Positions 58,287 through 62,137 of a stretch of 64,000 bases of DNA are shown here, in pieces. The stretch is from a bacterium (GTDB taxonomy: Bacteria > Desulfobacterota > Binatia > HRBIN30 > CADEER01). A model generated the notes under the pieces. The model was not told where the DNA came from. It saw nothing but the letters and a program-made list of their open reading frames with translations, and searched no databases. The first letter of the stretch is position 1. The number at the start of each line of letters is the position of its first letter. The position numbers were made by a program, and so were the translations under genes. The stretch spans positions 59,472 to 123,471 of the forward strand of contig JANNRA010000032.1 in the NCBI GenBank assembly GCA_031401035.1, written 5' to 3'.

Positions 58287-58655
58287 ATGGATCGTGAACG
58301 CTTCCGCGCCCTGGTCGTCGCGGCGCTCGATGAGATTCCGGAGCCGTTCCGCGCCTATCTCGCCGACGTGGAGGTCGTGATCGAGGATGAACCGGACGAC
58401 GACGTCCTGCGCGACATGGGGCTTGATCCGCGTCGCGATACAATCTTCGGCCTCTACGAGGGGGTGCCGGTGAACGAGCGCGGTCTCGACGAGGGGCTGC
58501 GGCTGCCCGATCGCATTGCCATCTACTACCGGCCGCTGGTGCGCGAGTTTCGCACCCCGGGGGCGATCCGGCGTGAGATCCGCAAGACCATCATTCACGA
58601 GGTCGGCCATGTGTTCGGTCTCGACGACGACGAGATCGAGGCGGAGGGGTACTGA
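58287..58655 (+). CDS. Small zincin-like metallopeptidase-family protein (HEXXH; DUF1025-like)
   Basis: The 122-aa acidic protein ends ...IRKTIIHEVGHVFGLDDDEIEAEGY (HExxH). It is cytoplasmic (no signal peptide). Confidence 0.55.
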   Translation: MDRERFRALVVAALDEIPEPFRAYLADVEVVIEDEPDDDVLRDMGLDPRRDTIFGLYEGVPVNERGLDEGLRLPDRIAIYYRPLVREFRTPGAIRREIRKTIIHEVGHVFGLDDDEIEAEGY

Positions 58656-58656
58656 C

Positions 58657-59310
58657 GTGGTCGCAGATCAGGGGGTTCCGTTACAACGCGCAACGCTCGA
58701 CCTCGGTGGTACGTTGGTGCCGTTGTGGCGCGCCTCATCCCTGGAGCGATTCGTCGATGCCGACTCTCTGCTGAGCGCCGGGGCGGCGCCCGAACCGCCA
58801 TACTGGATGCATCTCTGGCCCGGGGCCGTGGCGCTGGCGCGCATGGTCCTCGCCGACGCCAGCGTCGCGGCCGCGTCACGCGTGCTCGAACTCGGCGCCG
58901 GCCTCGGGTTGCCGGCGCTGGTAGCGGCGCGGCGCGGCGCGCAGGTCGTCGCCACCGATTGGCAGCGCGCGCCCTTGCGGGTGCTGGGCCGCAGCCTGGT
59001 TGAGAACGGCGTCGCCGCGGCCTGCGTGCAGATGGACTGGGCCCAGCCGGCCCTGTGCGGCGGATTCGATCTCTGCCTGGGCGCCGACGTTGCCTACGAT
59101 CGTACCGCCGAAGAGCCGTTGGTGGCGGCGCTGGCGTGCCTGCTGCGTCCGGGCGGACGCGCCTGGCTGGCGGACTCGGTGAACACCGCACGCACCAGCC
59201 TGGGTGAGAAGCTCGCGGCGCGCGGTTTCAGCGTGGCGAGCCGCGAGGTGCGTGAAGACGAGGAGGGTAGGGTAGTGTGGGTGCGGGTGATCGAGGCGAA
59301 ACTCGCATGA
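58657..59310 (+). CDS. Class I SAM-dependent methyltransferase (Methyltransf_16 / protein-lysine MTase-like)
   Basis: The GTG is 1 nt after the upstream stop. ...WPGAVALARMVLAD...VLELGAGLGLPALVAARRGAQVVATDWQ... is motif I of the FAM86/METTL21-like family. Confidence 0.6.
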   Translation: MVADQGVPLQRATLDLGGTLVPLWRASSLERFVDADSLLSAGAAPEPPYWMHLWPGAVALARMVLADASVAAASRVLELGAGLGLPALVAARRGAQVVATDWQRAPLRVLGRSLVENGVAAACVQMDWAQPALCGGFDLCLGADVAYDRTAEEPLVAALACLLRPGGRAWLADSVNTARTSLGEKLAARGFSVASREVREDEEGRVVWVRVIEAKLA

Positions 59311-60038
59311 GTATTGTGGTGTTCGATGTCGAGACCCGCGTCGACAAGGCGCTGGTGCGGGCGACGCAGTATCCCGGCGAGCGGATCGGCGACGACGAGG
59401 CCTACGAGCGTATGCGTGAGCAGCTGCGGCACGAGTCGGACGGGCGCAGCGATTTCTTCCCGCTCGGCTTTCATGTCCCCATCTCCATCGCGGTGGTGCA
59501 TGCGGGCGACGACCTCGCGTTGCGCAGTATCGAGGTGCTCGGCGCCGACCGCCTCGGCGAGGAGGGTCTGGTGCGGGAATTCTGGAGCCGCCTCGAAGGC
59601 TTCGATGGTCAGCTGGTGTCGTACAACGGGCGCGGCTTCGATCTGCCGGTGCTCGAGCTGCGCGCCCTGCACCACGGACTGTCGGCGCCGCGCTACTTCG
59701 GCGGCGAGCGCAACGGACTCCGACAGCGCTTCGGGCGGCATCTCGACCTCTTCGACTGGTTCGGCAACCACGGTGCGGTCCGGCTGCGCGGCGGCCTCGA
59801 CCTGATCGCCAAGCTGGCCGGATTGAGCGGCAAGTCCGATGTCTCCGGCGCCGACGTGCAGCGCCTGTGGGAGCGCGGAGTCTGGGACACCATCCATCGC
59901 TACTGTTTGGACGACGCCGTGCAGACCTACTTCGTCCTGCTCCGCGTCGAGCAGCTGCGCGGCCGCCTCACTAGCGATGCCGCGGCGGCGAGCGCCGCCG
60001 CGGCGCGCGCCTGGCTCGCCGCCCGCGAGACGACGTGA
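59307..60038 (+). CDS. Predicted 3'-5' exonuclease, RNase H-like fold related to the PolB exonuclease domain
   Basis: [13 protein letters not shown]... (Exo I D-x-E), ...[13 protein letters not shown]... (Exo II), ...[10 protein letters not shown] (Exo III Y-x3-D). ATGA overlap with the upstream gene. Confidence 0.6.
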
Positions 60039-62137
60039 GTACGCGCCATCAGGAGGAGCCCGGCACGCGCAGCCATATGGACGCGGAACAGCCGACCGGG
60101 ACGCAGCGCCGTGCGCCGCGCGTCGTGCCCAGCGAGGGGCGCTTCGAGCTCGAGGCCGAGTTCACGCCGCAGGGCGATCAGCCGCGTGCCATCGCCGCGC
60201 TGATCGCGGCGGCGCGCAGCGGCCAGCGGGCGCAGGTGCTGCTCGGCGTCACCGGCTCCGGCAAGACCTTCACCACCGCGCATGTCGTGCAGGCGCTGCA
60301 GCGCCCAACCCTGGTCATCGCGCCGAACAAGACCCTCGCGGCGCAACTGTACAACGAGTTCAAGACGCTCTTCCCGCGCAATGCCGTGCGCTATTTCGTC
60401 AGCTACTACGACTACTACCAGCCTGAAGCGTACGTCCCGAGCACCGACACCTTCATCGAGAAGGACTCGTCCATCAACGACGAGATCGACAAGATGCGGC
60501 ACTCGGCGACCAAGGCCCTGCTCGAGCGGCGCGATGTGCTGATAGTCGCCAGCGTCTCGTGCATCTACGGCCTCGGTTCGCCTGAGGCGTATTTCGACAT
60601 GCTCGTGTTTCTCGAGCGCGGCGAGCGCATTGATCGCGACCAACTGCTGCGCCGTTTTGTCGAGATTCAGTACGAGCGCAACGATTACGACTTCCATCGC
60701 GGCACCTTCCGTGTGCGCGGCGATGTGGTCGAGATCTACCCGGCCTACGAGGACGGGCAGGCGTTGCGCATCGAACTATTCGGCGACGAGATCGACCGCA
60801 TCACAGAAATTGACCCGCTACGCGGCAAGACGTTGCGTGGCCTCGACCGCGTCGCCATCTACCCGGCGAGCCACTACGTCACGCAGCCGGAGCAGCGGAA
60901 GCGGGCCGTCGACGGCATTCGCGCCGAGCTGCTGACCCGCCTGCAGGCGCTGCGCGGCGAGGCCAAGCTGCTTGAGGCACAACGCCTCGAACAGCGGACG
61001 ATGTACGACCTCGAGTTGCTCGAGGAAATGGGGTTCTGTCCCGGGATCGAGAACTACTCGCGTCACCTCACCGGGCGCGCCCCTGGCGAGGCCCCGCCGA
61101 CATTGATCAACTATTTTCCGGACGACTATCTGCTGGTTGTCGATGAGAGCCACGTGACCGTCCCCCAGATCGGTGGCATGTACCGCGGCGACCGGTCCCG
61201 CAAGGAGACACTGGTCGAGTTCGGATTCCGCCTACCGTCGGCGCTCGATAACCGGCCGCTCAGCTTCGCCGAATGGGAGGCGTTGGCGCACCAGGTACTC
61301 TACGTCTCGGCGACGCCGAGCGACTACGAGCGCCAGCAGGCGGGGGGCATCGTCGTCGAGCAACTCATTCGGCCGACCGGGCTGTTAGACCCGCAGATCT
61401 CGGTGCGGCCGGCGCGGCAGCAGGTTGACGATCTGCTCGAGGAGATTCGCCGCCGCGTCGCCGGCAACGAGCGCGTCCTGGTGACGACGCTGACCAAGAA
61501 GATGGCCGAAGACCTCACCGACTACTATCTCGAGCTGGGCGTCAAGGTGCGCTACCTGCACTCCGACATCGAGACCATCGAGCGAGTCGAGATCATCCGC
61601 GACCTGCGCAAGGGGGTTTTTGACGTATTGGTCGGCATCAACCTGCTCCGCGAGGGACTCGATCTGCCGGAGGTGTCGCTGGTCGCCATTCTCGACGCCG
61701 ACAAGGAGGGCTTCCTGCGCTCCGAGCGTTCCCTGATCCAGACCATCGGCCGCGCCGCCCGCAACGCCAATGGGACGGTGATTCTGTACGCCGACACGGT
61801 GACCGGGTCGATGCGTTCCGCCATCGACGAGACCACCCGGCGTCGTGTCCTGCAGGAGGCGCATAATCGCCAACACGACATCACCCCCACGACCATTCGC
61901 AAGGCCATCGGTGGCGCCTTGGTCGAGGCAGGCGAACTCGACTACGCCGACCTGCCGATGGTTGCGGAAGACGAGGGCGAGTACGTCCCGGTGGCACAGA
62001 TTCCAGGCCGCGTATCGGCGCTGCGCAAGGAAATGCGCGCCGCGGCCGCAGCCTTGGAGTTCGAGCGTGCGGCGACCCTACGCGACGAGATCCAGCGCCT
62101 CCAGTCGCGCGAGTTGCTCCTCCGCGGCGGGGATTAG
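60035..62137 (+). CDS. uvrB: Excinuclease ABC subunit B
   Basis: ...[14 protein letters not shown]..., [10 protein letters not shown], ...VVDESHVT..., and the C-terminal UVR domain ...[16 protein letters not shown]. The GTG overlaps the upstream stop (GTGA); an alternative Met start is at 60077. Confidence 0.9.

Follow-up and report, generated by a model that had tools for sequence, protein, structure and literature searches.

In a 64,000-nucleotide stretch of DNA from a bacterium of the class Binatia (contig JANNRA010000032.1, positions 59,472 to 123,471 of the forward strand; hereafter the window), the excision-repair gene uvrB is the last of four consecutive plus-strand genes at positions 58287-62137. 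The first encodes a predicted mini-zincin of 122 aa (58287..58655), the second a predicted Methyltransf_16-type S-adenosylmethionine (SAM) methyltransferase (MTase) of 217 aa (58657..59310), the third a stand-alone predicted DEDDy 3'-5' exonuclease (exo) of 243 aa (59307..60038), and the fourth a canonical UvrB of 700 aa, counted from a GTG at 60035 (60035..62137). In Escherichia coli uvrB is monocistronic and has LexA-regulated promoters, and in Bacillus subtilis it belongs to a uvrBA operon. The UvrB protein of the window is itself fully canonical, but its gene closes a run of overlap-coupled genes whose other members are not genes of nucleotide excision repair (NER), and the protein carries an N-terminal extension that varies by lineage. 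An earlier, sequence-only reading of the window called this a non-standard arrangement, and in the literature we found no description of an exonuclease-uvrB operon, nor did we find one by way of PF10108, COG3298 or DUF1025. The locus is thus a new variant arrangement of uvrB built from known families. We argue below that the four genes probably form a lineage-specific housekeeping operon and not a dedicated repair or defence system.

Junctions and expression signals of the four genes

All four genes lie on one strand, with junctions of +1, -4 and -4 nt, each within 4 nt. Read directly from the sequence, the zincin gene runs from the ATG at 58287 to a TGA at 58653-58655, and a single nucleotide separates it from the GTG of the MTase gene (58657-58659), giving a TGA-c-GTG junction at 58653-58659. 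The MTase stop and the exo start share an ATGA at 59307-59310, the exo stop and the uvrB start share a GTGA at 60035-60038, and uvrB ends at 62137. The sequence-only reading had reported the same 1-nt gap at 58655 and the same two overlaps, and its picture of four co-directional, overlap-coupled genes is borne out.

Comparison with related loci (numbered L001 and upwards) supports most of these starts. Homologues of the zincin are uniformly 121-122 aa long, and those of the MTase begin in the same alignment column. The ATGA between MTase and exo recurs in L001, L004 and L007, and exo and uvrB overlap through ATGA in L002 and L004 and through TTGA in L007. The overlapping TTGA of L007 is the only possible uvrB start there, with an AGGAGG 4 nt upstream; in L004 the overlapping start is the sole ATG or GTG candidate, with one TTG 33 nt downstream. 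In the six readable loci (the window, L001, L002, L004, L007 and L093) the gap between exo and uvrB is at most 10 nt. An alternative in-frame ATG, at 60077 in the window, is common to the window, L001 and L002, and the window's uvrB may start at this codon instead of at GTG 60035; the UvrB hidden Markov model (HMM) match begins only at residue 36 of the longer protein.

How unusual are such junctions in this genome? We made crude gene calls across the window, based on GC3, and counted a pair of same-strand neighbours as tight if a possible start lay between -4 and +10 nt of the upstream stop. By this measure 14 of the 28 same-strand pairs are equally tight. The window even holds a second four-gene chain, argH-164aa-dapF-dapA, whose junctions are -1, -4 and -4 nt and whose members belong to different pathways. 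With half of the pairs tight, overlap coupling is the default packing of this genome, and it does not mark out a special module. As an observation in its own right, this second chain (argH with Lyase_1/ASL_C2, a 164-aa open reading frame (ORF) without a Pfam match, dapF and dapA; 41225-44902, minus strand) lies close to an argB-argD-argF chain with junctions of +1 and -4 nt (46170-49220, minus strand), so that arginine and lysine biosynthesis genes would be translationally coupled in one string.

The signals for expression are sparse. A consensus scan of positions 57000-63000 found one sigma-70-like site on the plus strand, TTCCCA-17 nt-TACAAT at 58253-58281, which is the candidate promoter of the operon. 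The TACAAT -10 element stops 5 nt short of the zincin ATG, and the alignment places a -10-like hexamer (TTTAAT, TACGAT or TATGCT) at the same distance in L001, L004, L007 and L092. The sequence before this ATG contains no Shine-Dalgarno element. As the -10 hexamer adjoins an ATG that lacks such an element, the zincin mRNA is suggested to be leaderless or nearly so. The MTase start is preceded by a GGAGG at 58643-58647, 9 nt before the GTG, and the exo and uvrB starts by weak GAGG and GAG elements only. These weak elements lie inside the preceding genes, which fits termination-reinitiation.

No sigma-70-like site was found by the scan inside exo or before uvrB; such a scan is blind to weak and non-sigma-70 promoters and is itself weak evidence. 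We saw no convincing SOS/LexA palindrome in the alignment of the conserved upstream region, judged without a Binatota LexA motif as a guide. Two overlapping terminator-like sites at 60375-60391 fall inside the uvrB coding region, a number not clearly above that in shuffled sequence, and the terminator scan returned nothing convincing after uvrB. Next come 180 nt of spacer, which include a TTGACT-like element, and then a gene for a secreted lysyl-oxidase-like protein. This gene starts at about GTG 62319 (plus strand), runs to the end of the window and encodes a signal-peptide-like N-terminus; by synteny it would be the Lysyl_oxidase-domain protein kept downstream of uvrB in L004, L007, L092, L094 and L095. 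To our knowledge, bacterial homologues of lysyl oxidase are uncommon.

The upstream boundary is a divergent gene outside the operon, called from the ORF list at 57290..58237 (minus strand). Its product is a putative secreted protein or lipoprotein of 315 aa, acidic and Cys-rich, with a hydrophobic N-terminus, a weak match to Myxo_Cys_RPT and no Pfam domain. Every Binatia locus examined that has enough sequence on this side holds a homologue there, in the same orientation and with 25-51% identity. The spacer between this gene and the zincin gene (58238-58286), like its equivalents of about 50-130 nt in L001, L004, L007 and L092, holds two conserved blocks, TGCAAGG/GTCAAGG and CTG(G/T)CAG(C/G)A, the former reading TTGAC/TTGCA on the minus strand. 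Each of the two divergent genes starts just 5-7 nt from a -10-like hexamer and lacks a Shine-Dalgarno element, which suggests back-to-back leaderless transcripts.

The four protein families

We searched the proteins against Pfam and NCBIfam with curated cut-offs. The three families that the sequence-only reading had proposed for the smaller proteins, PF06262, PF10294 and PF10108, were all matched above their cut-offs.

The zincin matches PF06262 (Zincin_1/DUF1025) with 97.5 bits (cut-off 22.4, E = 4.4e-28) over positions 1-96 of a 97-position profile, and it aligns end to end with PDB entry 3E11, the structure of Acel_2062 (E = 1.1e-19). Its motif HEVGHVFGLDD (residues 104-114) fits HExxHxxGxxD near the C-terminus, and the chain ends in EGY; motif and terminal Tyr align with His95, Glu96, His99, Asp105 and Tyr113 of 3E11. 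The protein is strongly acidic, with an isoelectric point (pI) of 4.5 and 30 acidic against 17 basic residues. Acel_2062 has the same motif, a C-terminal Tyr in place of the Met-turn and a similarly acidic composition, and its peptidase activity has not been demonstrated (PMC3890501). Given the full-length alignment, the position of the motif, the C-terminal Tyr and the acidity, the protein is an Acel_2062-type mini-zincin and a predicted metallopeptidase. The context differs: in actinobacteria the Zincin_1 family is linked to whiB (PMC4255298), whereas here the zincin gene heads an operon ending in uvrB, and the family is without a known substrate. Of the earlier label 'SprT/DUF1025-like', then, the DUF1025 half stands and the SprT half falls, since Zincin_1 is the sole Pfam match at E <= 0.01 and an SprT-like domain is not matched. 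On family assignment and acidity we rejected the identification of this protein as an SprT-like protease acting on DNA-protein crosslinks (DPCs).

The MTase matches PF10294 with 35.7 bits (cut-off 21, E = 9e-9). Its AlphaFold2 (AF2) model has a predicted local distance difference test (pLDDT) value of 93.6, and Foldseek ranks 1-10 in the PDB are METTL21A/B/C/D, CaM-KMT and VCP-KMT (METTL21D), with TMq of 0.62-0.73. Three motifs stand out among 42 homologues: EPPYWMHLWPG is nearly invariant; in the SAM-binding ELG(A/C)GLG the residues E78, G80, G82 and L83 are invariant and the rest partly conserved; and in ADVAYD A143 and Y147 are invariant while D144 and D148 are at least 90% conserved. A DxxY after strand 4, as found in ADVAYD, is diagnostic of the Methyltransf_16 lysine methyltransferases. 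The earlier assignment to a Methyltransf_16-type enzyme is therefore sound, with PF10294 above its cut-off, the best PDB matches by sequence and by fold all within the family, and ELGxGxG and DxxY in place, although identity to the solved members is only about 20-25%. We predict a seven-beta-strand protein-lysine methyltransferase of the METTL21/20-like type.

A closer relationship to METTL20 is suggested by names. Homologues at JGI are called 'predicted nicotinamide N-methyase', one is called 'ETFB lysine methyltransferase', and the COG label that JGI gives to homologues includes bacterial METTL20-like enzymes. No NCBIfam equivalog matched the MTase, and these free-text names are the sole pointer to METTL20 orthology. 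ETFbeta is a known substrate of bacterial METTL20 homologues (PMC9006661). Nearly all orthologues of the MTase among the top 120 matches listed are Binatia-level, and the zincin likewise has only Binatia-level relatives among the matches listed. The names that NCBI gives to close homologues place the lineage in Candidatus Binatia, phylum Binatota.

The exonuclease matches PF10108 with 165.8 bits (cut-off 24, E = 1.5e-48) and PF13482 with E = 4.7e-9, and its DEDDy residues D7, E9, D112, Y199 and D203 are invariant or nearly so across 70 diverse homologues. The Exo I (DxE), Exo II (NGxxFD) and Exo III (YCxxD) motifs are all present, and N107, G108, F111 and C200 are also invariant or at least 90% conserved. 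With a pLDDT of 96.3, the AF2 model finds family-B polymerases in all of its top 50 Foldseek matches in the PDB, namely the exonuclease domains of herpes simplex virus (HSV), African swine fever virus (ASFV) and archaeal PolB enzymes and of Pol alpha, Pol delta and Pol epsilon. Family, residues and fold thus agree with the stand-alone RNase-H-fold exonuclease that the sequence-only reading described. The protein is an active-looking predicted 3'-5' nuclease whose likeliest substrates are DNA ends or nicks.

The PF10108/COG3298 family is large, widespread and biochemically uncharacterised, with over 2,000 clusters at 50% identity, and a survey of the RNase H-like superfamily placed it beside the PolB exonuclease domain (PMC3985635). 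Pfam detected no additional fused domain in the ten longest representatives that we scanned. The only studied member that we found is Cj1132c (WlaX) of Campylobacter jejuni, which was pulled down with SSB on DNA and whose deletion lowers the spontaneous mutation frequency (PMC4611032); this appears to be the only, and an indirect, functional datum on the family. The window's protein shares the strong HMM match, the catalytic residues and the PolB proofreading fold with this family, but in other lineages the genes adjoin RlmD-like methyltransferases, PALP enzymes or Mrp ATPases and not uvrB.

UvrB matches NF003673 with 1075.7 bits (cut-off 743) over profile positions 1-652 of 653, and TIGR00631 with 1054.6 bits; the HMM matches cover residues 36-691 of the GTG-started protein. 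The Pfam domains UvrB_inter, UvrB, UVR and Helicase_C are present and GVTGSGKT is visible in the translation. We predict a fully canonical, ordinary damage-verification helicase of NER. The segment before the core is what varies, from 13 to 35 aa by lineage, with about 35 residues in the window. Four of the five loci with a uvrB start that overlaps or adjoins exo have the longest extensions (19-35 aa); those of L007 (16 aa) and L092 (17 aa) are intermediate, and L009 and L093 have the shortest.

Gene order within and beyond Binatia

A scan of a genome collection with the single exo protein returned three loci, which we supplemented with contig look-ups and a metagenome scan. The order zincin-MTase-exo-uvrB occurs in the window, in L001, in L004 (also L005 and L006), in L007 (also L008) and in L094, L095 and L096, and L002 shows MTase-exo-uvrB at the start of its contig. 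Across the loci keeping the order, exo identity falls from 78% to about 61%. However, most of these loci also keep the thiolase, enoyl-CoA hydratase, mdh, sucC, divergent lipoprotein and lysyl oxidase genes: mdh and sucC are present in all loci with annotated flanks, and the lysyl oxidase gene in most, though not in L009 and L093. As these unrelated flanking genes are equally syntenic, synteny does not single out the four genes, and shared ancestry alone explains their conservation.

The unit also comes apart. In L092 (58% exo identity) an extra 90-aa ORF (4050-4322) lies between zincin and MTase, and a minus-strand Cupredoxin_1 gene (5759-6127) between exo and uvrB. In L009 (60%) zincin and MTase are missing and two minus-strand genes (6820-7723), a cupredoxin gene and a 136-aa ORF with a 54-nt tandem repeat, separate exo from uvrB. 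L093 (57%) retains exo-uvrB only, again without zincin and MTase. Because opposite-strand genes lie between exo and uvrB in L009 and L092, uvrB must have its own promoter there. The zincin and MTase genes form an optional pair, acquired or lost as one, and the sole feature that appears constant across the Binatia loci is the presence of exo within about 1.1 kb upstream of uvrB.

L009 is peculiar in another respect. The spacers around its exo, cupredoxin and uvrB genes all hold short tandem arrays of 8-nt units, at 5874-5990, 6742-6782, 7199-7276 and 7750-7811. The units are CAGATTGG, the reverse complement CCAATCTG/AATCTGC, and GTTCACAA, in 3-8 copies each. The corresponding region of the window has no comparable arrays.

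Outside Binatia the picture changes. The next relatives of exo, in L003, L010 and L011 (48-51% identity), lie in the order Mrp-type ATPase-exo-GT2-ABC transporter. A metagenome scan with the alignment of 70 exo sequences gave 80 loci at 31-53% identity, which together with L010 and L011 make up a non-Binatia set of 82 loci, 31 of them with at least 2.5 kb of sequence downstream. Not one of the 82 has uvrB beside exo (31 of the 82 having that downstream length), and none of the 80 metagenomic loci has a zincin nearby. An MTase gene was found near exo in just one of the 80, L037, which is probably Binatia-related. The proposal in the sequence-only reading to compare synteny around uvrB in related genomes thus led to a divided result, the order being kept in close and moderately distant Binatia relatives, broken in L009, L092 and L093, and absent from the 82 other loci. 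Adjacency in distant genomes beyond the background synteny, which is the mark of a functional cluster, was not seen: the order was confined to Binatia-level relatives.

The commonest immediate neighbours of these distant exo genes are tRNA_U5-meth_tr (RlmD-like) genes, in 11 loci, and PALP genes, in 7 loci. In a distant branch of PF10108 (about 34-38% identity) a same-strand ORF of about 440-510 aa follows exo; going by ORF size and position, we would place L047, L049, L052, L058, L064, L066, L069, L077, L082, L084, L085 and L088 in this group. The 11 neighbours match tRNA_U5-meth_tr (RlmD/TrmA-like), some with a TRAM domain, and the 7 PALP matches lie upstream. This recurrent pairing of exo with an RNA methyltransferase might be a hint that some PF10108 enzymes act on RNA. 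On IMG/VR viral contigs (L097-L176), 91 stretches encode exo relatives with best identities of 37-41%, none of them near the Binatia clade. Phages or proviruses therefore carry members of the wider family as well.

Housekeeping operon or repair module

We propose that the operon is a housekeeping unit of the Binatia (Candidatus Binatota) chromosome. One promoter (58253-58281) would give a leaderless polycistronic mRNA, and ribosomes would reach each later gene by termination-reinitiation at the TGA-c-GTG, ATGA and GTGA junctions, aided by the weak to moderate Shine-Dalgarno-like sequences in the preceding genes. With a shared promoter and reinitiation, the four genes would be co-transcribed and their proteins therefore co-expressed. 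The exonuclease gene would have stood beside uvrB since early in Binatia while the zincin-MTase module came and went, and co-expression with uvrB would then reflect the history of a chromosome on which genes are tightly packed, and would be no proof of one pathway. The sequence-only reading had moved from coupling to co-expression and on to a possible functional link between UvrB and the three small proteins. The coupled unit holds up; the link does not follow, given that the flanks are equally syntenic, the unit breaks within Binatia and uvrB is absent from all 82 loci outside.

Could the exonuclease nonetheless be a Binatia-specific accessory of NER, kept at a fixed ratio to UvrB by translational coupling and trimming 3' ends where UvrC has incised the DNA or where repair intermediates are blocked or nicked? 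We consider this unlikely. Exo and uvrB are adjacent in all Binatia loci examined, their 4-nt overlap is conserved, the DEDDy catalytic residues are intact, the modelled fold is that of a DNA proofreading exonuclease, and Cj1132c, captured on DNA with SSB, affects the mutation rate (PMC4611032). An excision pathway that combines a helicase with an exonuclease also exists, in MrfAB of B. subtilis, where a repair protein of the superfamily 2 (SF2) helicase fold is encoded beside a 3'-5' DEDD exonuclease and acts in mitomycin repair. However, MrfB is a DEDDh enzyme of the DnaQ type that is paired with a DUF1998 helicase and not with UvrB; it was neither found by phmmer against the PDB nor seen in the top 50 fold matches of exo, and we rejected kinship and keep MrfAB as an analogy only. 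The zero count of uvrB linkage in the 82 loci of other lineages, the opposite-strand genes that interrupt exo-uvrB in L009 and L092, the equal synteny of unrelated flanking genes and the lack of a fused repair domain in any of the ten longest PF10108 representatives scanned also tell against an accessory of NER. A quite different possibility is that uvrB is expressed mainly from its own, perhaps damage-inducible, promoter in the 3' end of exo, which would leave zincin-MTase-exo as the real unit. The separated uvrB genes of L009 and L092 need a promoter of their own, the UvrB core begins 35 codons after the GTG with ATG 60077 conserved in the window, L001 and L002, and uvrB of E. coli has LexA-regulated promoters. 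Yet the gap of at most 10 nt in the six readable loci, and an overlapping start that is the sole ATG or GTG candidate in L004 and the sole start, with its AGGAGG, in L007, make this distinctly improbable to us. The missing sigma-70-like site in exo or before uvrB points the same way, but as the scan misses weak and non-sigma-70 promoters, this is not strong evidence against an internal promoter.

The sequence-only reading also raised a repair- or defence-associated add-on. In its most specific form, zincin-MTase-exo would be an add-on for DPC repair or against phages that uses UvrB, with the zincin as an SprT/Wss1-like protease. The sole basis within the operon is the company of a metalloprotease motif, a nuclease and UvrB, to which the distant exo relatives (at most 41% identity) on IMG/VR viral contigs may be added. 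We consider it very improbable indeed. The zincin is of the Acel_2062 type, with Zincin_1 as its only Pfam match and an end-to-end alignment with 3E11; at pI 4.5 it is as acidic as Acel_2062 (PMC3890501), which is unfavourable for DNA binding; and the actinobacterial members of its family are linked to whiB, not to repair (PMC4255298). L009 and L093 do without both zincin and MTase. None of the components has a specific match in PADLOC-DB 2.0, where we saw generic overlaps only (mad2 for the MTase core; PbeA, DpdF and similar for the helicase C domain of UvrB). The neighbourhood is core chromosome, with argB/D/F/H-type, dapA/dapF and hslU-type genes followed by thiolase, enoyl-CoA hydratase, mdh and sucC; the GC content stays flat, between 0.65 and 0.70, with no compositional island, and there are no mobile-element genes among the neighbours. 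On these grounds the defence-system reading was rejected.

Some observations do weigh against a purely historical, housekeeping operon. Exo lies no more than about 1.1 kb upstream of uvrB in all 11 Binatia loci whose contigs reach that far, and the 4-nt overlap between the two genes persists down to about 63% exo identity; such persistence might be more than pure drift would predict. The Binatia sample itself comprises about a dozen loci and not all genomes. Furthermore, Cj1132c was recovered on DNA with SSB and its deletion lowered the mutation frequency (PMC4611032), which makes a DNA-maintenance role plausible. A role of exo in repair is possible but unproven. A bolder idea is that exo was recruited in Binatia as a dedicated partner of UvrB, trimming or resecting at UvrB-verified lesions, with zincin-MTase as an optional regulatory layer, for example through lysine methylation or proteolytic turnover of UvrB or exo. 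We give this idea little credence on present sequence comparisons.

The housekeeping operon that we favour has a value of its own. It documents a lineage-restricted uvrB operon in an uncultured phylum and corrects the family assignments of its members, the zincin being an Acel_2062 mini-zincin and not SprT, and the methyltransferase a predicted METTL21/20-like lysine MTase. It is also a worked example of how overlap coupling and within-class synteny, in a tightly packed genome, do not amount to a functional link. If a partnership between exo and UvrB were nevertheless true, it would add a fourth, lineage-specific component to NER and would give the PF10108/COG3298 family its first function.

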